A DNA stretch of 64,000 nucleotides, from the NCBI GenBank assembly GCA_016180955.1, contig JACPAD010000001.1, forward strand, positions 8,527-72,526, read 5' to 3'. A model generated the notes under the pieces. That model made no database searches and was not told the DNA's origin. It was given only the letters and a program-made list of their open reading frames with translations. This stretch comes from Candidatus Zambryskiibacteriota bacterium. Its GTDB lineage: Bacteria > Patescibacteriota > Minisyncoccia > Phycocordibacterales > Zambryskibacteraceae. This document shows positions 4,865 to 56,041 of this stretch, piece after piece. The first letter of the stretch is position 1; each line of letters begins with the position of its first letter. Position numbers and translations under genes: made by a program.

Positions 4865-6106
4865 ATGCTCCAAGGATTTGTCCATGCTTTGAGAATTCAG
4901 TCGAAAATCATTTTTATCGTGGTGCGCAATTTGAAAGGTTTGACGCAGGTTGTGGTGGCAGCTGATAACTTGGAGTTTGAGACAGCAAAAAATCTATCCC
5001 TCGAATCGGTTGTCAGAGTAACGGGAGAAATGAAAGAAGAGAAAGCCGCTCCCGGAGGCATTGAGATGCATCCGACTAAAATAGAAGTGCTCTCGAGAGC
5101 CGAACCGGAACTACCGATACCAGTAGTTATCAAGGGTGGGGAAGAGACCGAAGCACCTATACGCTTCGATTACCGCTGGCTGGACCTGCGTAAACCGGAG
5201 AAAACAAAAATCTTTAAAGTTTGGACCGAGTTTGAGAAGGGTTGGAGAAAGTATTGGGATGAGAATAATTATATCCAACTTTATCCACCCGCATTAATGT
5301 CCACGCCATCAGAGAGCGGCGCGGAAGTCTTCGAGGTTAAGTATTTCGATAGGAAGGCATATCTGGCACAATCCCCTCAATTTTACAAGCAAATGGCCAT
5401 GGCGGCAGGTTTCGAAAAAGTTTTCATGGTGTCTCCCGTGTTTCGCGCCGAAGAGTCCTTTACCACTCGCCATGTGACGGAGTTTACCGGCTGGGACTTT
5501 GAAATTTCTTATATTAATGACCACAACGACGTGATGGATGCCGAAGAGGGAATGATTATCGAGGGGTTTAAGGCGCTCAAAGAAGCTCAAATTCCCAACT
5601 TGGAAGCTCAGCTTCCAAGTAGGCCATTTCCAAGAGTTACTATGATTGAAGCAAAAAAAATTCTCGCAGGTCTGGGTATTGCATCTCTCGATGCCGACGA
5701 TCTTTCTCCTGAAGAAGAAAAGGCAATTTCTGATTGGGTGCTCAAAGAAAAAAACCATGAATTTGTATTTATCACCGAATATCATAAATCTAAGAGCGCT
5801 TTCTACCATATGCGAAGTGTCGAAGACCCCGAGCGTAGTCGAAGGGCGGATCTACTCTACCGCGGACTTGAGGTTACAACGCTTGCCCAGCGCGAGCACA
5901 GAGTAGAAATTCTCGAGAAGCAAGCGCAAGAAAAAGGGATGGCTCTTGAGCCGCTCAAAGATTACCTAAACTTCTTCCGCTACGGCTGTCCGCCGCACGG
6001 CGGCGCCGGCATCGGCCCAGCTCGATTTATCATGAAAATCCTCGGCCTCGGGAACGTCCGCGAAGCAACTTATCTCCCAAGAGACGTAAAACGTCTGAAT
6101 CCGTAA
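4865..6106 (+). CDS. aspS: Aspartyl-tRNA synthetase, archaeal/eukaryal-type (short form)
   Basis: Class II motifs SPVFRAEES and GGAGIGPARFIM. OB-fold N-terminus (IFIVVRNLKGLTQVV). 413 aa; N-terminus shorter than usual. Confidence 0.85.
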   Translation: MLQGFVHALRIQSKIIFIVVRNLKGLTQVVVAADNLEFETAKNLSLESVVRVTGEMKEEKAAPGGIEMHPTKIEVLSRAEPELPIPVVIKGGEETEAPIRFDYRWLDLRKPEKTKIFKVWTEFEKGWRKYWDENNYIQLYPPALMSTPSESGAEVFEVKYFDRKAYLAQSPQFYKQMAMAAGFEKVFMVSPVFRAEESFTTRHVTEFTGWDFEISYINDHNDVMDAEEGMIIEGFKALKEAQIPNLEAQLPSRPFPRVTMIEAKKILAGLGIASLDADDLSPEEEKAISDWVLKEKNHEFVFITEYHKSKSAFYHMRSVEDPERSRRADLLYRGLEVTTLAQREHRVEILEKQAQEKGMALEPLKDYLNFFRYGCPPHGGAGIGPARFIMKILGLGNVREATYLPRDVKRLNP

Positions 6107-6846: not shown

Positions 6847-7399
6847 GTCAAAGATAGAATCCATATTGTTTTTCCGAAACGAACCAATCTCAATTTCTGA
6901 ATTGGCAAAGATTCTTGGTGGAGATAAGGAAAAAGTAACAGTAGCAATTGAAAATCTCCAGGAATTTTACAAAAATCGCGGTATTGTTATTGTTTCTGAC
7001 GGGGAGTCACTATCTTTTGGCACCCGTCCTTCAAATTCGGAACTGATTGAGAAAATCCAGAAAGAAGAACTTTCCCGCGAACTGGGACGGGCTGGGCTTG
7101 AGACTTTGGCTATCGTTCTTTATCGCGGGCCGGTATCGAGAAGGGAGATAGACCGGATTCGCGGTGTCAATTCTAGTTTTATCCTGCGCACGCTTATGAT
7201 TAGAGGACTTATTGAACGGACCGAAGGTGACCCCTCGACTGCGCTCAGGGCAGGAAGAAGCTATACTTATAAACCAACGTTGAAGCTTCTTCAATATCTG
7301 GGTATTACCCGTCGCGAAGAGTTGCCAGAATACCAAAACGCTTTCAAGAAAATGGAAGAGTTTGTAAAGACCGAGTCGCGGCAAGAAGAAAATGTTTAA
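6839..7399 (+). CDS. scpB: Segregation and condensation protein B
   Basis: ESILFFRNEPISISELAKIL and a second wHTH (LETLAIVLYRGPVSRREIDRIRG). Carries an in-frame PSTALRAG insert. Confidence 0.85.
   Translation: MLESKIESILFFRNEPISISELAKILGGDKEKVTVAIENLQEFYKNRGIVIVSDGESLSFGTRPSNSELIEKIQKEELSRELGRAGLETLAIVLYRGPVSRREIDRIRGVNSSFILRTLMIRGLIERTEGDPSTALRAGRSYTYKPTLKLLQYLGITRREELPEYQNAFKKMEEFVKTESRQEENV
7232..7255 (+). repeat. In-frame 24-nt element copy (CCCTCGACTGCGCTCAGGGCAGGA = PSTALRAG) inside scpB
   Basis: Near-identical nucleotide strings at 32857-32880, 32425-32448 and 24490-24513. Confidence 0.6.
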
Positions 7400-12363: not shown

Positions 12364-13461
12364 ATGGCAACGAGGATCAAAGTTGATAAGCCGTTTCTTA
12401 TCATCACGGTAATACTTATCGTGGCGGGTTTTTTTATCTTCTCCTCCGCTTCGCTCGGGCTTCTTGCCAGAGAGAGCTCGAATTATTCGAACGTGGCTTT
12501 CTCGCAGACAGTACTTGGCCTATTTTTGGGAACGGTTGCCATGCTGGTCGCCACGCGGCTTGACTTTAAAATTTGGAAGAGCTCGGCTTTCTACATTTTG
12601 TTTGCGGCTATCATTCTTAACATCTTGGTCCTCCACCCTTTTGTCGGCATCGAGCACGGAGGCGCCCGCCGCTGGATAGAGCTTGGGCAGTTTAGCTTCC
12701 AACCCTCGGAGGTGCTTAAATTCGCTTTCATCATCTATTTCGCGGCATGGGCGGCGGGCGCCAAAGAAAAAATGCGGACATTCCGTTGGGGATTCCTGCC
12801 CCTGTTGGCACTCATTGGTATTTGCGGCTGGCTTCTTTTGAAGCAGCCCGACACGGATACCTTTTTATTGATCGTCCTCACAGGCATGGCGATGTTTATC
12901 GCCGCCGCCGGCAGATGGCGCTATATTCTTTTTTGTCTTTTAGCGGGACTTATCGGCCTCTCATTTCTTGCCTATAGCCGGCCTTATGTGAAGGAGCGTT
13001 TGGAGACGTTCGTCAATCCTACAGCCGACTCGCTCGGGGCAAGCTATCAAATCCAGCAGTCGCTCATCGCCATCGGCTCGGGGGGACTTTTTGGCAAGGG
13101 TTTCGGCCAGAGCGTGCAGAAATTTACCTATTTGCCCGAGCCGGTAGGGGATTCTGTCTTTGCTGTTGCGGCGGAAGAATTCGGCTTCGTTGGCTCGGTG
13201 CTTCTCTTGGCAATCTTTGCCCTTTTTGCCACCCGCGGGCTGAAAATTGCTTCGAGAACCCCGTCAGCGTTCGGTAGACTGACGGTTGTCGGGATTGTTA
13301 TAATGATAATCTCCCAAGCATTCGTCAATATTGGCGCCATGCTGGGAGTCTTGCCGCTCTCGGGCATTACGCTTCCATTCGTGAGCCACGGCGGCACTTC
13401 GCTCTTCATCACCCTTTTCGAAGTCGGCGTCGTTCTCTCTATCTCTAAAACTCAAAAATGA
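12364..13461 (+). CDS. ftsW: SEDS-family peptidoglycan polymerase FtsW/RodA
   Basis: 10-TM pattern. YQIQQSLIAIGSGGLFGKGFGQS and LPFVSHGGTS motifs. Next to murG. Confidence 0.85.
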   Translation: MATRIKVDKPFLIITVILIVAGFFIFSSASLGLLARESSNYSNVAFSQTVLGLFLGTVAMLVATRLDFKIWKSSAFYILFAAIILNILVLHPFVGIEHGGARRWIELGQFSFQPSEVLKFAFIIYFAAWAAGAKEKMRTFRWGFLPLLALIGICGWLLLKQPDTDTFLLIVLTGMAMFIAAAGRWRYILFCLLAGLIGLSFLAYSRPYVKERLETFVNPTADSLGASYQIQQSLIAIGSGGLFGKGFGQSVQKFTYLPEPVGDSVFAVAAEEFGFVGSVLLLAIFALFATRGLKIASRTPSAFGRLTVVGIVIMIISQAFVNIGAMLGVLPLSGITLPFVSHGGTSLFITLFEVGVVLSISKTQK

Positions 13462-17268: not shown

Positions 17269-17381
17269 TAAAAGTTCTCAAGGTAATTCTCTTTTTAATC
17301 CTCGCGCCAATCTATGTCCCGGCTTATATTCTTATGCAGTTCAGCTTCAAATGGTGGGCTGGCCTTTTGGGCGGGGATTGA
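17265..17381 (+). CDS. Possible 38-aa membrane micro-protein, ATGA-coupled to the preceding ORF
   Basis: Own translation MIKVLKVILFLILAPIYVPAYILMQFSFKWWAGLLGGD. Below the ORF-track size cut-off. Confidence 0.25.
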   Translation: MIKVLKVILFLILAPIYVPAYILMQFSFKWWAGLLGGD

Positions 17382-17447
17382 TCCTGTTAGAAATTTAATT
17401 CTGCTTATCCACAGCTACTTCGTTTTACATATATTGTGCGAAGATGT

Positions 17448-17453
17448 TAATAT
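17448..17453 (+). promoter_or_regulatory. Extended -10 (TGtTAATAT) 7 nt before the xerC-like ATG; leaderless candidate
   Basis: TAATAT 17448-17453, ATG 17461. Confidence 0.4.
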
Positions 17454-17460
17454 AGTGAAT

Positions 17461-18426
17461 ATGCCCAATTCCCTACCCATAACTCAACACCTTTTGCCCT
17501 TTCTTGATTATTGCGAAATAGAAAAAGGATTATCAAATAATACACAGAAGAATTATCGGCAATATCTCCTGCTTTTTACGGGCTGGCTCAAAAAATCCGG
17601 CAATGAAAAGCTCAAGCCACAGGAGTTGACCGCCAAGCACATTTGGGACTACCGACTCTACCTTGCCCGTCAATATAAGACCCCAGGAGGCTCGTACTTG
17701 AGCAAGAAGTCGCAGAATTACTATTTGATAGCTTTGAGGGCGCTTTTGAATTATTTTGCCGAAAAAGATATAGAGTCTCTTCCCTCTTCGAAAATAAAAT
17801 TGGCGAAGCAGAAGTCGGAGAAAATAATTTCTTTCTTGGAAGTTTCTGATATGGAGAAAATACTCAAGGTGCCGGATGTCTCGACTATAAACGGCTTGCG
17901 CGATAGGGCTATTATGGAACTCTTTTTCTCATCCGGCATGCGCATTTCGGAGCTTGTAGCCCTTAATGCCGACCAGCTCTTATTTCTTGATAACAAGAAC
18001 GCTAAAAGAACTTACGAACTCTCCATCGTCGGCAAGGGCAAACACATTCGCACTATTTTCATCTCCCCTCGTGCCGCCGAGTGGCTGAGGAAGTATCTGA
18101 CAAAAAGGCGTGACGTGCATAAGCCGTTATTTATAAATACTAGGTCGAAAGACCTGGACAACAATCGTCTCACTCCGCGCTCGATACAGTCGATGATATC
18201 GAGGGCGGCGATGTTGGCCGGATTATCAAAAAAAGTGACGCCTCACACCCTGCGTCACAGCTATGCTACCGACCTCTTATCTCATGGAGCCGACCTGCGT
18301 AGCGTCCAAGAGCTTCTGGGACACAAAAATGTTTCTACAACCCAAGTCTACACCCACGTTACCAACAAGCGCCTGCGTGACATCCATGAGAAATTCCACG
18401 GCGGCAGGGATTTAAAGGATAAATAA
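17461..18426 (+). CDS. Tyrosine recombinase XerC/XerD family
   Basis: RDRAIMELFFSSGMRISE, TPHTLRHSYATDLL and LLGHKNVSTTQVYTHV motifs (R..HxxR..Y). Start moved to the internal ATG 17461 (MPNSLPITQHLL...). Confidence 0.85.
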   Translation: MPNSLPITQHLLPFLDYCEIEKGLSNNTQKNYRQYLLLFTGWLKKSGNEKLKPQELTAKHIWDYRLYLARQYKTPGGSYLSKKSQNYYLIALRALLNYFAEKDIESLPSSKIKLAKQKSEKIISFLEVSDMEKILKVPDVSTINGLRDRAIMELFFSSGMRISELVALNADQLLFLDNKNAKRTYELSIVGKGKHIRTIFISPRAAEWLRKYLTKRRDVHKPLFINTRSKDLDNNRLTPRSIQSMISRAAMLAGLSKKVTPHTLRHSYATDLLSHGADLRSVQELLGHKNVSTTQVYTHVTNKRLRDIHEKFHGGRDLKDK

Positions 18427-18436
18427 AACACACAAA

Positions 18437-18466
18437 CCCCGCCGCGTCTGACGCGGCGGGGTTTTG
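18437..18466. terminator. Bidirectional GC-rich hairpin terminator between the convergent xerC-like and lysozyme-like genes
   Basis: CCCCGCCGCG-tctga-CGCGGCGGGG followed by TTTT. Confidence 0.75.
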
Positions 18467-18472
18467 TAGAGA

Positions 18473-18928
18473 TTATCTCTTAGCTATCTCGAAGTTAGAG
18501 AATTTGGACCAGCAAGCAGAGGAGGACATCCAGGGCTTGGCGCCATACTTTTCATAAAGGTAGCGTGCGTAAGCCACGTTGTCGTCCAGGTCGTGCAAGT
18601 CCAATCCCATCTCTTGTGCATCCTCTTGATGGTACAAGATGTTGATTTGCATCACGCCTCGATCGTAGCTGTTCTTCTCGCCGTGGAGCACATCTCCCTT
18701 GGAGTAGTGTCTGTAGCGGGATTCACACCTAGCGATTTTAGCCATGAGTGGAATGTCGGCGAAATAGTTCTTAACGAACCTCTCGACGTTCTCCGTCTCC
18801 GTTATCGGCAGATAGTCTTCTGACCTCACTTCTTTAGGAAGAGGCAGAGTCTCTACCTCAATCTCTGTGGCCGGAACTGGCGAGGTAATCGCTGGAAACA
18901 CAGCCATAGCGGAAGAAGAGAAACTCAA
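18473..18928 (-). CDS. Lysozyme-like / lytic transglycosylase-fold protein; start unclear, possibly frameshifted
   Basis: IARCESRYRHYSKGD...DRGVMQINILYH (catalytic Glu plus MQIN). The frame stays open upstream of the TTG at 18928 and encodes signal-peptide-like LQLTTLSLLLSFSSSAMA. The only ATG (18992) is in another frame across an A4 run. Confidence 0.55.
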   Translation of the reverse strand: MSFSSSAMAVFPAITSPVPATEIEVETLPLPKEVRSEDYLPITETENVERFVKNYFADIPLMAKIARCESRYRHYSKGDVLHGEKNSYDRGVMQINILYHQEDAQEMGLDLHDLDDNVAYARYLYEKYGAKPWMSSSACWSKFSNFEIAKR

Positions 18929-19045
18929 GAGAAGACTAAGGGTTGTTAACTGTAAAATAACAGTGGGATAAACTTGTAATTTTGGGTGACATTGACCGTA
19001 AGAGCGCTCCCAATTGAAAAGCCAGGACTTTCCTGACTTACTTAT

Positions 19046-19074
19046 ATCTTATCACACCTGACTATTGATGTCAA
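19046..19074 (-). promoter_or_regulatory. Canonical promoter TTGACA-17-TAAGAT for the lysozyme-like gene
   Basis: Minus-strand TTGACA = 19074-19069; TAAGAT = 19051-19046. Confidence 0.5.
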
Positions 19075-19130
19075 GGACTTTTTGTGGTCTAGTTTAATAA
19101 AATGGCTTTGTTAAGCCGTATTTTGTGAAA

Positions 19131-19514
19131 CTATTGTGGCTTGCAATTAGCCGCCAGAGTATATCCGGAGGCCTCGGCTGCTTCCGGCGAGCTAAAAATG
19201 ATTTTATTCTCCTCTCTAATCTGCTTGGCTCCCGCGCAATGCGAGTAGTGGTATTTAGTGCCATTTTTAGAAGCCACTACAGAAGAGGAATTTTCAATGT
19301 TATTCAATGCGCTAGAAACAGAGGCTTGATTGGAAATTGATGAGTCGTATTCTATCTTTATTGCTTCCCTGTCCCCCGCCACCGTAAGTCTCCCAATACC
19401 GAAAGAAAGAGCAGCAACGAGAATGATAATAAGAGCTAAGAAAAGCTTCCTTAAAAGCGGAAATTTTTCGATATTACCAAACTTGTCAAAAGAAACTTCC
19501 TCTGCTATATTCAT
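19131..19514 (-). CDS. Membrane-anchored protein with C-terminal Ada-like Zn-binding-type domain
   Basis: Start moved to the internal ATG 19514 (MNIAEEV...). One TM helix. C-terminus GTKYHYSHCAGAKQIREENKIIFSSPEAAEASGYTLAANC. Confidence 0.45.
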   Translation of the reverse strand: MNIAEEVSFDKFGNIEKFPLLRKLFLALIIILVAALSFGIGRLTVAGDREAIKIEYDSSISNQASVSSALNNIENSSSVVASKNGTKYHYSHCAGAKQIREENKIIFSSPEAAEASGYTLAANCKPQ

Positions 19515-19552
19515 AGAGCTTAATATTATAGGTTCGACAAGCTCACTATACA

Positions 19553-19831
19553 ATGGCACATAAAAAGTCCGCGGGCACAACTAAAAACGGCCGAGATTCC
19601 AATCCAAAATATCTTGGCATTAAGATTACTCCGGGAGCAAGGGCTAAGTCCGGCTCTGTTCTTGTGCGTCAGCGCGGCTCTGATGTACTGGCTGGTAAAG
19701 GAGTCTCTATGGGCAAGGACCATACTCTCTTCGCTCTCGTTGACGGCAAGGTTTTTCTTACCTATAAGCGCAAGGTCCATTTTGATAATAGCGTAGTCAA
19801 AAAAAAGGTTATGAATGTTGTTCCCGTCTAA
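19553..19831 (+). CDS. rpmA: 50S ribosomal protein L27
   Basis: [24 protein letters not shown] signature. Confidence 0.95.
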
Positions 19832-20075
19832 ACTTTTCAAGTTCTAAATGTTTTTCTAGACGTCTTGCTTCCTTTTCATTAATCTCCTGCTCTCGAGCGG
19901 CTTTCTTTGTCTTGCTTTGCTCCTTGAGCTGTTTTACTCTAGCGACGCTTGCTTTATCCGCTACGAGCGCAAAATTCTTAGGGATTAAAAAATTTAAAGC
20001 GTAGCCGTCGGCCACATTCTTCTCTTCAAACTTACGTCCGACACCCTTCACATCCTGAAGTAAGATAATCTTCAT
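19809..20075 (-). CDS. rplI: 50S ribosomal protein L9 (N-terminal domain plus helix only, 88 aa)
   Basis: [32 protein letters not shown]. 3' end overlaps the rpmA 3' end by 23 nt (convergent). Confidence 0.8.
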
Positions 20076-24307: not shown

Positions 24308-24909
24308 TGAACGCTATCGATCGGTTAGCTGAACTTTTTAAAAACTTCCCCGGCATAGGCCCGCGGCAAGCCAAGCGCTTTGTTTATTATCTTTTATCTA
24401 GAGATGGAAATTATTCTGATGAACTGATTAAAGCAATACAAAATCTCAAGCAAGAAATCGCACAGTGCAATGAATGCCAGAGACACTTTCCCTCGACAAA
24501 CTCGGGACAAGCGCTCTGTTCCATTTGCTCTGACGATACCAGAGATAGCTCAATGCTCATGGTTGTGCCGAGAGATATTGACTTGGAAGCGGTTGAGAAA
24601 TCTGGTAGTTACAAGGGTTACTATTTCGTGTTAGGCGGTGTGGTGCCGATTCTAGAGAAAGAACCAGAAAAAAGAATCAGAATCAAGGAACTAGAATCAC
24701 GAATCAAGAAAAATAAAAATATCAAAGAAATAATTCTTGCTATGAACGCCAACCAGGACGGCGAGCATACCGCCGAATTCATCAAACAAAAATATCAAGG
24801 GCTACCCTTGATATTTTCCGCGCTTGGCAGAGGTCTCTCCACTGGCATCGAGTTAGAATACGCCGACCCAGAAACCCTCAAAAACGCCTTTTTGCATCGG
24901 ACTAAATAA
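24307..24909 (+). CDS. recR: Recombination protein RecR
   Basis: FPGIGPRQAKRF HhH, CxxC...CxxC zinc finger, Toprim. The finger loop is lengthened by a PSTNSGQA insert. Confidence 0.9.
   Translation: MNAIDRLAELFKNFPGIGPRQAKRFVYYLLSRDGNYSDELIKAIQNLKQEIAQCNECQRHFPSTNSGQALCSICSDDTRDSSMLMVVPRDIDLEAVEKSGSYKGYYFVLGGVVPILEKEPEKRIRIKELESRIKKNKNIKEIILAMNANQDGEHTAEFIKQKYQGLPLIFSALGRGLSTGIELEYADPETLKNAFLHRTK
24490..24513 (+). repeat. In-frame element copy (CCCTCGACAAACTCGGGACAAGCG = PSTNSGQA) inside the recR zinc finger
   Basis: Shares the CCCTCGAC and CTCGGG.CAAGC blocks with the copB copy at 32425-32448. One nt shorter between the blocks, so the 3' half is read in another frame. Confidence 0.5.
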
Positions 24910-31008: not shown

Positions 31009-32898
31009 TTATAAGTTTATTCGGCGCAAAAGCAGGGCGTTAATAGCAACAATGATCGTACTTGCTGACATAAACCCCGCCGCCAAGGCCGGTTCAAGAA
31101 TAATTCCTTTGGAGACAAGTACTCCGGCCGCCAGAGGCAGGGCGGCCACGTTGTAGCCGGTAGCCCAGAAAAGGTTCTGAATCATCTTTGAGTATGTCAT
31201 CTGGGAAAGCCTGATAATCTTTACGATATCCCGAGGATCGTTCCTAACAAGGATAATACCTGCTGATTCAATAGCAACGTTCGTGCCGGCACCAATAGCG
31301 ATACCGAGATCGGCTTGAGTGATGGCCGGTGCGTCATTAATACCGTCACCAACCATCGCGACCCTTAGATTACGCTTCTGAAGCTCCTTAACTTTTTCAG
31401 ACTTTCGATGAGGCAGTACCCGAGCAAAGTATTCGTCAATGCCAAGCTCGCGGGCAACCGATTCTGCTACCTCTTCCGAATCGCCGGTAATCATAGCCGA
31501 TTTAATGCCCATCTTCTTGATTTGCTTCAAGGCCTCTTTTGCTTCTGGTCTTATCTTGTCAGCGGCTTGAATGACGCCGATTTGTTTATCATCGACTTCA
31601 ACAACGATATCAGACGCACCACGCTGGCCGACAAAAACTTTTTTGCCTTCCACTTCCGCTTGGGCACCGATACCGGCAATGCGCTTGAAGTTTTTTGACT
31701 CTTTTAGTTCCAGATTTCTTTTCTTCGCTTCGTCGACAATGCCTTTGGCGATGGGATGTTCAGAATGAATGTCAACAGAGGCGGCTAGAATCAAGGCTTC
31801 ATCAGACGAGTAAGAAGTAACCCCAAAGACGCCTTCCGTGAGTGTTCCTGTTTTATCGAAGAGCACAGTATCGATAGTTCGCGCCACTTCCAAGGCAAGC
31901 CTTTGTTTTACGAGGAACCCATTCTGTGCCGCTTTGGTCGTGGAGATTGAAGCCACAAGTGGCACGGCAAGACCAAGTGCGTGCGGACAGGCGATGACCA
32001 GTACCGCCACCAGCCGAGCAACCGCGAAGCCGACATCGGCGCCGACCGCAAGCCATAGGACAAGGGTAGTAATGCCCCCGCCGACAGCCACGACGGTCAA
32101 ATAGAGAGCCGCTCTGTCAGAAAGAATTTGGAGTCGAGATTTGCTGGCTGCGGCCTCGGCCACCAGACGCATGACGCCGGCCAGGAATGTTTTCTCGCCA
32201 ATATTCGATACCCTAATCTTTAGCGCTCCATCTCCGTTGATTGTTCCGGCGATAACAGAGTCGTCTTCTTTTTTAGAAACCGGCTTTGATTCTCCGGTTA
32301 CCATAGATTCGTTTACATCGGATTCTCCATCAATAACCGTGCCATCCGCTGGAATCTTTGTCCCCGGCTTAACTAATACTATGTCATTCTTCCGAAGTTC
32401 AGAAAGAGGAATGATTTCTGTTTTGCTTGCCCCGAGCGCGGTCGAGGGGTTGCCGCGAATTACTTCAGCAGTGTCCGGAAGCAGTTTAGACAACTCTTTG
32501 AGTGCACCCTGGGCGCCGCTAACCGCTCGCATTTCAAGCCAGTGGCCGAGAAGCATTATAGTAATGAGCGTTGTAAGTTCCCAGAAAAGCGGTTCCTCTC
32601 CTGCAAATACCGCATATACGCTCCATAGATATGCGGAGCAAATAGCGAGGCCAATGAGAGTCATCATGCCGGGCAAACCGGCCTTAAGTTCGCGCCATGC
32701 TCCTAGAAGGAAGATCCAGCCACCGTAGAAAAATACGAACGAGCTAAGTATTAAAGGCAAATAATCTGAATCTTTGTAAAGTATCACTGGAATCGTAAGA
32801 ATCAGACTTACTAAAAATTTTCTCAAAAAATCTTCAGTATGGTGTCCCGCGTGCTTGTTTGCACTGAGCGCAGTCGAAGTGTTGTGATTATGCTCCAT
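31009..32898 (-). CDS. copB: Heavy-metal (copper) P1B-type ATPase, CPH / His-rich N-terminus (CopB-like)
   Basis: TGES, CPH, DKTGTLT and GDGINDAP motifs. N-terminus MEHNHN...HAGHH. Start moved to ATG 32898 because the ORF-track extension to 32961 is the tRNA-Glu sequence. Confidence 0.9.
32425..32448 (-). repeat. In-frame element copy (CCCTCGACCGCGCTCGGGGCAAGC = PSTALGAS) in copB
   Basis: Lies in EVIRG[[10 protein letters not shown]]TEIIPL, where the protein looks longer than I recall for typical CopA/CopB. Confidence 0.5.
32857..32880 (-). repeat. In-frame element copy (ACTTCGACTGCGCTCAGTGCAAAC = TSTALSAN) in the copB N-terminus
   Basis: Core TCGACTGCGCTCAG.GCA is identical to the scpB copy. 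Confidence 0.5.
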
Positions 32899-32903
32899 AT
32901 TTA

Positions 32904-32975
32904 TGACCTCACGGAGAATCGGACTCCGGTTCCGAGCTTGAGAAGCTCGTGTCCTAACCACTAGACGATGAGGCC
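32904..32975 (-). tRNA. tRNA-Glu (anticodon CUC), no encoded CCA
   Basis: Hand-folded: GGCCTCA/TGAGGTC acceptor, GTCT/GGAC D-stem, CGAGC-TTCTCAA-GCTCG anticodon arm, CGGAG-TCCGATT-CTCCG T-arm, 72 nt. Confidence 0.9.
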
Positions 32976-53449: not shown

Positions 53450-54436
53450 TCAGCGTCTCAAAACTTTTTTGACGGCTTTGATAATGGCGTCTTTACCCAT
53501 GCCGTAATGCTCGATTAACTCTTCCGGCGTACCTGATTGGCCGAATTGGTCATCAACGCCGATAAATTCGATAGCTACCGGATAATTTCTCGCTAGACAT
53601 TCCGCCACCGCCGAACCCATGCCCCCTCTTATCTGATGCTCCTCCACAGTAACGATTCTTTTAGCTCTCTTGGCCAAAGCGGTAATTGCTTCCTCATCAA
53701 GTGGTTTTATGGTCGAGAGATTTATCACTTCCACCTGAATCTTTTCTTCCTCAAGCTCTTTTGCAGCCAACAATGCTTTATATAAAAGCGCGCCGGTAGC
53801 AATTATTCCTACTTTTGGCGACTCGGACTCCCAGAAAATTTCGGCCTCACCGATTTTAAACGGCGTTTTATCCGTGGTCATGATTGGTGTATTCTCGCGC
53901 GCAAGGCGAATATAGACAGGAGTGTCGGTATTAGCAGCGGCTTCAGTCGCCTTTCTTGCCTCTATTGCATCACAGGGAGAAATGACCACCATGCGCGGTA
54001 GGACGCGGGTAATAGCAATATCCTCTATTGCCTGATGTGTACCGCCATCAGGCCCAACGGATACACCAGTATGGGAACCGGCGATCACAACCCTTCTGTT
54101 GTTGAAGCAGATAGTGGTGCGAATCTGCTCCCAGTTCCTGCCCGGAGAAAACATGGCATAGGAACTGATAAAGGGAATTTTTCCCATGGCGGCAAGGCCT
54201 GATGCGACTGAAGCTAAGTTCTGTTCCGCCACACCGAGTTCGATGAAGCGGTTCGGAAACTTCTCCGCGAATAAATTCATCTTGGTCGATTCCGTCAAGT
54301 CAGCACAAAGCCCGACCACACTCTGATTTTTCTGTCCAGCCGCGAGCAATCCTTCTCCAAATCCCTGCCGAATAGGAACTTGCTCAACTTTCTCATCAAA
54401 CATCTTCTCATTAAGTTTTAAATCCGGGTTGAGCAT
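53450..54436 (-). CDS. tkt: Transketolase, C-terminal half (pyrimidine-binding plus C-terminal domains)
   Basis: 328 aa. GVAEQNLASVASGLA and HTGVSVGPDGGTHQ motifs. Confidence 0.9.
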   Translation of the reverse strand: MLNPDLKLNEKMFDEKVEQVPIRQGFGEGLLAAGQKNQSVVGLCADLTESTKMNLFAEKFPNRFIELGVAEQNLASVASGLAAMGKIPFISSYAMFSPGRNWEQIRTTICFNNRRVVIAGSHTGVSVGPDGGTHQAIEDIAITRVLPRMVVISPCDAIEARKATEAAANTDTPVYIRLARENTPIMTTDKTPFKIGEAEIFWESESPKVGIIATGALLYKALLAAKELEEEKIQVEVINLSTIKPLDEEAITALAKRAKRIVTVEEHQIRGGMGSAVAECLARNYPVAIEFIGVDDQFGQSGTPEELIEHYGMGKDAIIKAVKKVLRR

Positions 54437-55174: not shown

Positions 55175-56041
55175 TCATTCATGTTCGCTTCTTATCTTAC
55201 CTCCTAATGTTCGAAGTTCTTTGAGAGCCATTTGGGCTTCTTCTTTATTTGGTGGTTTGCCGTGCCAGCGATAGTCACGCTCAAATTCCTTCACACCTTT
55301 GCCGGGAATTGTGTGGGCAATAATAACGGTCGGTGTACCGAAAATGCCCGATGAGGCGTCGAAGGCGTCAACAATCTCTTCGATATTGTGCCCGTCGATT
55401 TCAATCACATGCCAGTTCCAGGCGCGCCATTTATCAGACAAGGACTCCAATGGCATCACGCTCTCGGTATAGCCGTCGATTTGAATATTATTCCTGTCTA
55501 CTACTGCCACCAGATTATGAAGCTTCTCCTTAGCCCCCAGCATGGCCGCTTCCCAGGTCTGGCCGCACTCCATTTCGCCGTCAGAGAGCAGAGCGTAAAT
55601 GCGCCGCGAGCTCGTGAGCCCGTGGTCAATTTTATCCGCGAGAGCCATGCCAACCGCCTGTGAGAGGCCGGAGCCAAGAGGGCCGGAACTAGTCTCAAGT
55701 ATGGGCAAGAAATCGCGATGCGGGTGGCCCTGCAGACGGCTACCGAACTTTCTCAAAGTTTTTAGCTCGCTTTTCGGGAAATAACCTGCATGAGCCATGG
55801 TGGCGTAGAGAAGCGGGCAGATGTGACCGTTCGAGAGTACCAGTCGGTCGCGCTCCGGCCAGTCTGGTTTTTCGGGCTTGTGTTTAAGGGTATGGAAAAA
55901 GAGGACGGTGAAGATATCCGCCATATCAAGCGGTCCCGCGGTGTGGCCAGAGCCGGCCACGAGCAACGATTCGATAATTGAGATGCGAATCTCATTCGCG
56001 ATGACTTCGAGCGCGACTATTTTGTCTTGAGCAAGTTCCAT
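55175..56041 (-). CDS. tkt: Transketolase, N-terminal half (TPP-binding)
   Basis: 288 aa. GSGHTAGPLDMADIF and LLSDGEMECGQTWEA motifs. Confidence 0.9.
   Translation of the reverse strand: MELAQDKIVALEVIANEIRISIIESLLVAGSGHTAGPLDMADIFTVLFFHTLKHKPEKPDWPERDRLVLSNGHICPLLYATMAHAGYFPKSELKTLRKFGSRLQGHPHRDFLPILETSSGPLGSGLSQAVGMALADKIDHGLTSSRRIYALLSDGEMECGQTWEAAMLGAKEKLHNLVAVVDRNNIQIDGYTESVMPLESLSDKWRAWNWHVIEIDGHNIEEIVDAFDASSGIFGTPTVIIAHTIPGKGVKEFERDYRWHGKPPNKEEAQMALKELRTLGGKIRSEHE

Follow-up and report, generated by a model that had tools for sequence, protein, structure and literature searches.

The 64,000-nucleotide stretch of Candidatus Zambryskiibacteriota DNA analyzed here (called the window throughout; contig JACPAD010000001.1, positions 8,527 to 72,526), from the candidate phyla radiation (CPR), carries several copies of a 24-nucleotide (nt) DNA unit, most of them in frame inside ordinary genes. 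In aligned copies from viral contigs, the consensus of the unit is CCCYTCGAC-NNN-GCTCRGGRCARG, mostly followed by a C. The copies are probably a non-autonomous mini mobile DNA repeat, comparable to the repetitive extragenic palindromic (REP) sequences and the Rickettsia palindromic elements (RPE), that is tolerated in protein loops. Nested copies and filled and empty sites demonstrate that a unit enters DNA as a block of exactly 24 nt, that no target site is duplicated, and that places prone to be single-stranded are preferred, such as the loops of hairpins, other units included. Filled and empty alleles then pass between related strains by short-patch homologous recombination, while old copies decay by point mutation.

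The window holds five solid copies of the unit and one probable relic (Table 1), against a chance expectation of none. A preliminary description of this DNA had listed four near-identical strings in the genes for ScpB, RecR, and a CopB-type ATPase. All four are real and lie where they had been placed, on the sense strand of the host gene and in one common codon phase that begins P/T-S-T, and Pfam upheld the host identities (ScpB, RecR, and a P1B-type heavy-metal ATPase). The tally itself was two short, as it missed the antisense copy in a tRNA synthetase gene and the probable relic in FtsW/RodA. This relic translates as PTADSLGAS, in the phase of the other sense copies, and scores 8.6 bits, inside the range of shuffled controls. 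The excess over chance that had been predicted was evident: the proposed pattern TCGAC-N3/4-CTCRGGRCARG gave three exact matches in the window, with 0.00 expected from 100 shuffles, and a looser pattern found all four strings, with 0.1 expected. That pattern captures a real motif but merges two subfamilies, since the RecR copy belongs to a one-base-shorter form, TCGAC-AA-GCTC (N2 rather than N3). The natural register of the unit also begins one base before the codon-aligned coordinates first given, so that the ScpB copy, for instance, spans 7231-7254. The profile used on the window was built from 143 external copies.

Table 1. Copies of the 24-nt unit in the 64,000-nt window
Feature	Position	Strand	Support
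Canonical 24-nt unit CCCCTCGACTGCGCTCAGGGCAGG in ScpB	7231..7254	+	profile E=2.5e-6
N2-subfamily unit CCCTCGACAAACTCGGGACAAG in RecR	24490..24511	+	one mismatch, G->A
Canonical unit CCCCTCGACCGCGCTCGGGGCAAG in P1B-type ATPase (CopB), PSTALGAS	32426..32449	-	profile E=7e-5
Degenerate unit CACTTCGACTGCGCTCAGTGCAAA at the CopB N-terminus, TSTALSAN	32858..32881	-	3 mismatches; profile E=8e-3
Antisense unit in class II Asp/Asn-type tRNA synthetase gene (4865-6106 +)	5823..5846	-	E=4e-4
Probable decayed relic CAGCCGACTCGCTCGGGGCAAGC in FtsW/RodA	13022..13046	+	3 mismatches; tentative

Alignments with solved structures place three of the sense copies in loops or turns, as had been suspected. The ScpB unit encodes residues 132-139 (PSTALRAG) in the wing loop of the C-terminal (second) winged-helix domain, the RecR unit encodes residues 62-69 (PSTNSGQA) within the loop of the C4 zinc finger, and the internal CopB unit occupies a turn in the actuator-domain region, between ..VIRGN and KTEII... 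The N-terminal CopB unit directly precedes the conserved KHAGH motif. Loop positions rest on these Protein Data Bank alignments because the AlphaFold2 model of ScpB was too poor to be used for loop mapping, with a predicted local distance difference test score below 50 over residues 62-143. In the synthetase gene, the strand that carries the unit reads CCCTTCGACTACGCTCGGGGTCTT, with a non-canonical 3' tail, and the protein reads ..EDPERSRRA... The orientation of the copies in the window tracks gene orientation rather than one replication strand, which is explicable by selection on the encoded peptide, as the sense frames are stop-free and rich in small residues.

The unit has a well-defined anatomy. 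Aligned viral copies are conserved from position -1 to 23 between random flanks, giving sharp edges 24/25 nt apart. For column and pairing counts, 251 distinct units were gathered by profile rather than by a fixed pattern. In this set, positions 5-9 (TCGAC) and 13-16 (GCTC) are almost invariant, and the positions on either side covary. Pair 4:17 is TA in 164 units and CG in 61; in pooled strict sets it is TA in 241, CG in 63, and discordant in 7, with both pair types present in every subfamily. The ScpB copy of the window, with C-A at Y4/R17, is among the rare discordant ones. Pair 3:18 is CG 238 times and TA 3 times, pair 2:19 is CG 219, AT 6, and GC 2 times, and pair 1:20 is CG 108 and TA 46 times, plus 80 cases of C-A. 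In a subfamily with an ATGAC tail, two positions that the search had left free, T1 (32 of 34) and A0 (27 of 34), pair with A20 and T21, giving a 5-bp stem, ATCCY/RGGAT. This covariation supports a short hairpin as the single-stranded form of the unit, in which a compensatory stem of 4-5 bp would enclose a near-invariant 12-nt loop, TCGAC-NNN-GCTC, and be followed by a conserved tail of 4-5 nt. The termini, CCCY... and ...RCARG, do not form an inverted repeat; tails are RCARG(C) or ATGAC, and 5' ends are CCC or AT.

The complementary strand may have a structure of its own. In 57% of copies, and in 94% of ATGAC-subfamily members, the variable triplet has the form T-N-C, so that the complementary strand reads C-[G-N-A]-G between two Py-GA-Pu steps. 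GNA loops closed by C:G are known as an unusually stable DNA hairpin motif (PMC13037366, PMC3201870). We hypothesize that the complementary strand could adopt a sheared-GA/GNA-triloop fold, whose fit to the GCGNAGC consensus requires a one-base bulge.

Several known sequences were considered as the identity of the unit. Against Rfam 15, unit positions gave no match, whether in the window, across 18 genome loci, or when a phage locus with six copies was scanned permissively. By inspection, we dropped a resemblance to the tRNA T-loop/D-arm (the G53 equivalent is missing and the spacing is impossible), to the 16S 5' end (GGCTCAGGACGAACG; the match is only partial), to the hammerhead core and the K-turn (which call for GA or bulge positions that the unit lacks), and to restriction sites. 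The FtsK-orienting polar sequence (KOPS; GGGNAGGG) was dropped because unit orientation tracks genes rather than one strand. Larger structures that include the unit were also seen. In Kiritimatiellae, Dormibacterota, and Acidobacteriota loci (L247, L219, L251, and L252), the unit is often followed directly by a second, ATGAC-tailed unit whose interior is expanded by 20-30 nt (CTCTTCG....GCTCAGGATGACA), forming larger composite repeats that recur within the locus. In viral contigs L061 and L096, a longer GC-rich palindrome, GGGGCGCAATA...TATTGCGCCCC, apparently of a separate repeat family, has the unit in its loop.

The unit is a DNA-level element and not a protein motif, in agreement with the preliminary description, which had placed the conservation in the nucleotides. 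In pairwise comparisons of ten distinct ScpB alleles, four-fold synonymous sites are 82% identical within the unit versus 32-38% in the 25 flanking codons on each side, and the residue encoded by the variable triplet switches freely among S, A, and T. One DNA sequence yields PST.L.AG,.FDKL../LD.ARGK, or LRLRSGQA, depending on the frame, and DPERSRRA or PALSVVEG when it lies antisense, which bears out the earlier suggestion that similar peptides in metagenomic protein predictions are other frames of one motif. The antisense copy in the synthetase gene (AspRS) is likewise conserved at the nucleotide level at an orthologous site, the second such case, this time on the non-coding strand. Its 23-nt match, CCTTCGACTACGCTCAGGGTCAT, which has 3 mismatches to the template, is shared without change by the window and five other CPR loci (L137, L141, L173, L185, and L195; protein ..DDPERSRRADLL..), although the neighboring residues differ.

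The two CopB sites are clean insertions. At the internal site, most close orthologues read AEVIRNG/KTETI (a slash marks each junction), and 22 of 120 read AEVIRNG/PSTxLGxS/KTETI, exactly 8 amino acids (aa) longer. At the N-terminus, HD/KHAGH in most orthologues corresponds to HD/TSTSLSAG/KHAGH in 8 of 120, again a clean gain of 8 aa, and one orthologue reads the N-terminal unit in another frame, as PFDGARG. At the DNA level, in a pair of genes encoding 98.5%-identical proteins, an empty GACGG/AAAAAC is matched by a filled AACGG/CCCTTCGACAAAGCTCGGGGCAAG/CAAAAC, a difference of exactly 24 nt with no duplication. Around the difference is a diverged tract of ~300 nt, as is typical of recombined segments. 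At the single empty site examined, no conserved target tetranucleotide was recognized.

Two metagenomic CopB alleles, L402 and L403 (alignment columns 594-653), are identical over 2,160 nt except for one single-nucleotide polymorphism and a patch of ~60 nt. The patch spans the unit plus the 33 nt upstream of it, and in it a decayed unit and its diverged flanks have given way to a pristine unit between consensus flanks; as a recombination or conversion tract, it is unusually short. Other short inserts (PSFAKASAG, KPSSAKAPEG, and DKSRFAEANRGSSISQAKSG) stand just upstream of KHAGH in the N-termini of CopB orthologues (P0242-P0360). These look like the translation of a further short DNA repeat family, or families, with a ...GGACAAGC-like tail. 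The CopB protein of the window (629 aa) is without the N-terminal zinc-ribbon metal-binding domain PF19335 (TCPMHPE..CPECGM) that is present in most close orthologues. A tRNA gene (32904-32975, minus strand) lies 6 nt upstream of an ATG at 32898, and a GTG-started open reading frame (ORF) extending to 32961 overlaps it; because the tRNA gene occupies this interval, CopB probably starts at the ATG.

The ScpB and RecR sites are less simple. Short ScpB alleles read TEGTERSYSYK, and others carry an N3 unit, an N2 unit, decayed units, or a double unit. RecR orthologues have the canonical PSTSSGQA, decayed forms, or non-motif loops, and the motif loops (FPSTSSGQAL), many intermediates, and the non-motif loops (YAKNGHESKI) are all equal in length; only the whole clade is longer, by ~5 aa, than solved RecR structures. 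The earlier proposal that the host proteins are locally longer than their families, through insertion into tolerated loops, therefore stands for CopB at both sites and agrees with the polymorphism of ScpB, which is 4 aa longer than solved ScpB, but is not demonstrable for RecR, which has the length of its close orthologues. Neighbor-joining trees of 120 ScpB or RecR sequences are star-like, and ScpB motif state is uncorrelated with similarity across the remaining protein, so counts of gain and loss events were not relied on. Orthologous sites in ScpB, RecR, and CopB all show a decay series of the unit.

A second recurrent site lies directly upstream of the conserved KILVSGVK start of a class Ib tRNA synthetase (TrpRS/TyrRS-type), with copies at L156 3521-3542, L198 1419-1440, L002 544, L167 5818, L175 560, and L176 6422. 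At two of the class Ib loci, which have CTCATG for CTCAGG, the unit provides the start codon and its 5' half forms the leader.

Insertion as a block is seen most directly where one unit has entered another. In five nested cases (L002 in ScpB, L011, L025 twice, and L122), removing exactly 24 nt restores a canonical host unit, with a junction ambiguity of no more than 2 nt. All of the insertion points fall in the 12-nt loop of the host unit, so units enter as defined blocks, often into hairpin loops. The palindrome CCGTTCG-N-GAG^CYTGTCGAAG-N was found uninterrupted five times and with exactly 24 additional nt at the caret twice, and another palindrome, CCGGCGGGA^CGCCGGCG, was found both empty and filled. 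Inverted-repeat flanks with stems of at least 7 bp surround 7% of copies versus 0.5% of mismatched-flank controls, an excess of more than 10-fold. Head-to-tail 24-nt arrays occur, and locus L014 has runs of 5' partial units followed by one complete unit. Flanking target-site duplications, which the preliminary description had proposed to look for, were absent from the filled/empty CopB pair and from the nested cases.

The unit is spread far beyond this genome. A scan of IMG/VR viral contigs with CYTCGACNNNGCTCRGGRCARG gave at least 120 unit loci. Two variants are widespread as well, the one-base-shorter RecR type in 37 viral loci and the ATGAC-tailed form in 38. In one genome per GTDB species, the 24-nt pattern occurs at at least 120 loci, where ~4 are estimated by chance in 596 Gb. 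Among the matches listed, genomes with the unit cover at least 15 phyla, namely, Acidobacteriota, Nitrospirota, Verrucomicrobiota, Planctomycetota, Chloroflexota, Patescibacteria, Bacteroidota, Cyanobacteriota, Gemmatimonadota, Pseudomonadota, Thermodesulfobacteriota, Kiritimatiellota, Dormibacterota, Methylomirabilota, and others, and the cultured carriers among these matches are Aequorivita, Leeuwenhoekiella, Nodularia, and Baaleninema. It is also found on plasmids of cultured Planktothrix, Microcystis, Methylomonas, Pseudanabaena, and Trichlorobacter lovleyi. On T. lovleyi plasmid pIAE1 (L325 4001-4024, 7268-7291, and 4812-4835), an annotated transposase gene occurs in two copies beside a sul1/qacEdelta1 cassette and has a perfect antisense unit (PALSVVEG) near its C-terminus; in the complete gene copy, a degenerate sense-strand unit lies farther upstream within the ORF. 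This transposase was considered as the mover of the unit and rejected, as the unit there is an in-frame passenger inside an insertion sequence (IS) gene. The unit was absent from the cultured-phage records and E. coli genomes searched, so it is neither a fragment of a universal gene or RNA nor a common laboratory artifact of assembly. An origin in sequencing or assembly chemistry is likewise unlikely, given the in-frame conservation in independent NCBI, JGI, ENA, and Logan data sets.

Within 916 kb of related, Zambryskibacteria-like CPR DNA, we counted 48 copies with no more than 3 mismatches versus 1 in shuffled sequence. In lower-GC non-CPR genomes, 15 of 22 copies are intergenic; in CPR DNA, which is 92% coding, only 3 of 42 have no long ORF around them, the others being within ORFs, mostly in frame and in sense. 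Insertion into housekeeping genes, as first described, is thus present, but the unit is special neither to such genes nor to this genome, being mostly intergenic elsewhere. The impression that two copies on one contig always share a strand was true of strict matches and became a mere bias once weaker copies were counted. As to the nature of the unit, the suggestion of a tiny insertion sequence is supported, and the alternative of a repair scar is without support because the ends of the unit are too sharp and its cross-phylum conservation too high.

REP copies that lie in frame within genes are known, with repair genes and tRNA synthetases among the hosts (Di Nocera et al. 2013, PMC3733652). 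Like REPs and their doublets (REPINs), the unit is a short hairpin repeat (24 nt; REPs have 20-40 bp) with compensatory stem changes, dispersed and mostly extragenic, with a minority in ORFs that lies in frame at termini or loops, DNA-repair and tRNA synthetase genes included. Both occur as singles, dimers, and clusters and can provide start or stop codons. The unpaired terminal GTAG or CGTC tag of REPs (PMC3733652) is absent from either strand in the 251 units. The stem of the unit is shorter, at 4-5 bp compared with 6-9 bp, and its 12-nt loop is conserved, whereas REP loops are mostly short; it is near-identical across 15 phyla or more, in contrast to REP families, which are largely confined to a species or an order. 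The REP-associated tyrosine transposase (RAYT, of the Y1 type) is typically flanked by REPs, and none was found in the window or in ten ORFs between paired unit copies. To our knowledge, exact 24-nt nesting into hairpin loops has not been described for REPs.

RPEs were reportedly described by Ogata et al. in 2000 as selfish DNA in frame within protein-coding genes, a study that PMC3733652 and PMC10969869 cite. The unit resembles them in its in-frame insertion at surface positions of essential genes in a reduced genome, where it is translated as an extra peptide (CopB, ScpB, and RecR). It differs in size and range: RPE-1 has ~100-150 bp (30-50 aa) and is restricted to Rickettsia, while the unit has 24 nt (8 aa) and is pan-bacterial, with copies in phage contigs as well. 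MITEs (miniature inverted-repeat transposable elements) likewise are non-autonomous, multi-copy, presumably mobilized in trans, and able to sit in genes and alter proteins (PMC10969869). They have terminal inverted repeats and target-site duplications, both of which the unit lacks, and typically measure 50-500 bp or more. The unit is several-fold shorter than the smallest MITEs we know of.

The substrates of IS200/IS605 and other HUH enzymes share with the unit a small imperfect hairpin with a short conserved tail, the absence of target duplication, and an affinity for single strands and hairpins, and the candidate C-[GNA]-G loop and two Py-GA-Pu steps of the complementary strand are DNA-specific stabilizing motifs (PMC13037366, PMC3201870). 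Substrates of the IS200/IS605 type insert beside a specific short target with a lagging-strand bias, have a hairpin that is recognized on one DNA strand, and come with an encoded TnpA. They differ in that no TnpA/HUH gene was found in the window or in the ORFs between paired copies and no conserved target was seen at the single empty site. We know of no precedent among HUH substrates for a functional element made of a single 24-nt hairpin. Uptake signal sequences (USS), DNA uptake sequences (DUS), Chi, KOPS, and the cyanobacterial highly iterated palindrome HIP1 are also over-represented, constrained oligomers in tolerant gene frames and on recombination tracts. Unlike the unit, they arise by point mutation and drive, are much denser (~1 per kb for USS/DUS versus ~1 per 10-30 kb) and lineage-specific, and never form blocks, nested copies, or tandem arrays.

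In the reading that we favor, that of a REP/RPE-like mobile repeat, the length of 24 nt amounts to 8 codons, and the sense frames give small, flexible, stop-free peptides (P-S-T-x-L-G-A-G), so that copies in surface loops or at termini could survive selection. In a CPR genome that is ~92% coding, such copies may be nearly the only ones left. The candidate mover, judging from the anatomy of the unit, would be a trans-acting enzyme that recognizes the hairpin loop on single-stranded DNA; by analogy with REP/RAYT and IS200/IS605, our preferred guess would be a HUH/Y1-type transposase. The identity across phyla calls for a conserved mobilizing enzyme that is widely transferred or for an added sequence-level function.

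Several observations weigh against this reading. Both of the closest pairs of filled and other alleles are explained by allelic recombination, and no de novo insertion was caught. The ScpB and RecR sites offer no clean 24-nt differences; the closest discordant ScpB pairs, at 87% nt identity, differ by messy changes of other lengths without a clean junction. No HUH transposase or reverse transcriptase was found among the genes of the 64-kb window, and no mobilizing gene among the ten ORFs tested between paired copies in parts of other genomes, which are ordinary genes (oxidoreductase, phage terminase and portal, and aminotransferase). Nearest-neighbor folding is weak on both strands (0 to -3.9 kcal/mol, z~0), with shuffled sequences equally stable, so that support for the stem comes from covariation and not from folding energy. 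Synonymous positions at the ScpB site stay conserved in orthologues with saturated flanks, where selfish DNA under neutrality would be expected to decay; to account for them, the unit would have to be re-inserted or converted recurrently at a hotspot or be under selection at the sequence level. Finally, near-identity over at least 15 phyla is unlike the lineage-specific REP and MITE families (PMC3733652). This identity and the synonymous conservation at an old orthologous site keep two rivals alive, a selected cis-acting signal and a conserved "writing" mechanism.

The first of these, which we regard as unlikely though the strongest competitor, holds that the unit is bound or processed by a conserved factor of the host or a phage, as DNA or within the transcript. 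It might then be a recombination, repair, or replication signal, or an mRNA element as has been suggested for REPs, with useful copies being kept and insertion merely the way in which new sites arise. The extreme conservation of the 12-nt loop and the tail across phyla fits such a signal, as do the constrained synonymous sites in ScpB, the identical antisense AspRS copy kept in six CPR lineages, and the presence of the unit inside both observed recombination patches. Orientation is also non-random: neighboring copies are co-oriented (31 versus 12 beyond 1 kb and 20 versus 2 at 100-1000 nt), and copies in CPR genes favor the sense strand (31 versus 8 antisense). In the window, however, orientation follows genes and is explicable by peptide selection. 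Every site examined has many unit-free orthologues with no compensation seen, copies decay freely in many lineages, and the nested and tandem copies and the insertions into unrelated palindromes look parasitic. The density, roughly 1 per 10-30 kb in CPR loci, is low and irregular for a signal, and a known RNA element is not indicated by Rfam.

In the second, the unit would be written at nicks or breaks, for example at cleaved hairpin loops, by an enzyme that carries a fixed 24-nt template: a polymerase or a reverse transcriptase resembling telomerase, retrons, or defense-associated reverse transcriptases. Each copy would accordingly be a product of repair or addition and not a cut-and-paste element. 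We consider this improbable. A fixed unit length without target duplication would follow naturally, as would whole-unit head-to-tail arrays and the 5' partial-unit runs that end in one complete unit at L014; hairpin loops are natural nuclease targets, and a conserved template would yield constancy across phyla. Yet positions N10-12 and the compensatory stems vary between neighboring and nested copies of one locus, unlike the output of a single fixed template, and both ends are sharp, where primer-alignment mechanisms usually leave ragged 5' junctions. In addition, no reverse transcriptase was seen near the copies, whether in the window or in the ORFs between paired copies.

A further reading is a drive of the kind exerted by the USS/DUS of Pasteurellaceae and Neisseriaceae, in which the motif would be favored in uptake by competent cells and spread by recombination into homologous loci. 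CPR bacteria depend on DNA uptake. The exchange of unit alleles on very short tracts (~60 and ~300 nt), the use of tolerant frames and loops, and the conservation of synonymous sites would all be expected of such a drive. USS and DUS accumulate by point mutation, though, and not as 24-nt blocks, nested copies, and tandem arrays, and they are 10-30 times denser than the unit; uptake receptors specific to a lineage could not account for one sequence shared by at least 15 phyla and by phage contigs. The cross-phylum distribution and the block insertions make this account very unlikely. Convergence on a protein loop motif, PST.LGAG, selected for a structural or functional role is effectively refuted: 22 of 42 CPR copies do share one frame, whose Pro/Ser/Thr/Gly/Ala-rich peptide suits loops, but synonymous positions are conserved while the variable-triplet residue shifts among S, A, and T, copies of the DNA also stand in other frames, in antisense, and (mostly so outside CPR) between genes, and the host proteins are functionally unrelated and often have orthologues without the motif.

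The window is otherwise ordinary housekeeping DNA, with a XerC/D-type tyrosine recombinase as its only recombinase. This gene (Phage_integrase and SAM-like N domains) is followed by four small minus-strand ORFs in the region 17314-20075, two of which (18473-18928 and 19131-19580) were scanned and gave no Pfam match; the region may be a small integrated element or simply xerC/D and its neighbors. Transketolase is split into two minus-strand ORFs, 53453-54436 and 55178-56041, ~740 nt apart with small ORFs between them, one part being the N-terminal thiamine pyrophosphate-binding region and the other the Pyr/C-terminal region.

No published description of the unit came up in a full-text literature search by DNA string, peptide string, and topic. 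Because intragenic in-frame REPs and RPEs have been documented (PMC3733652), the kind of element is already known, and there is a substantial chance that a new mechanism lies behind this one. It is possible, if doubtful, that the unit is the smallest mobile element yet seen, 24 nt and one hairpin, moved or written by conserved but unrecognized machinery that acts on hairpin loops of single-stranded DNA and is shared by most bacterial phyla and their phages; with a length of exactly 8 codons and stop-free sense frames, the unit would also be a general, continuing source of loop insertions in bacterial proteins. If so, it would explain the ubiquitous PSTSSGQA-, FDKLRAG-, and LRQAQGK-type strings in metagenomic protein predictions.

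Should these interpretations hold, one 24-nt sequence would be a pan-bacterial genomic parasite or signal that the literature has missed, even though thousands of metagenomic protein predictions display it. For mobile DNA, the puzzle would be how 24 nt and one hairpin are mobilized, and how they stay identical from Acidobacteriota to Cyanobacteria, CPR bacteria, and phages; the cultured carriers Planktothrix agardhii, Microcystis aeruginosa NIES-2481, Methylomonas sp. DH-1, and Trichlorobacter lovleyi make the question experimentally tractable. For annotation, it would become possible to recognize and mask small spurious ORFs and odd inserts of 8 aa in conserved proteins, and in population genomics the presence/absence alleles mark very short recombination tracts. 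For the evolution of proteins, the unit offers a concrete and recurrent route to loop insertions in the essential proteins of reduced genomes.

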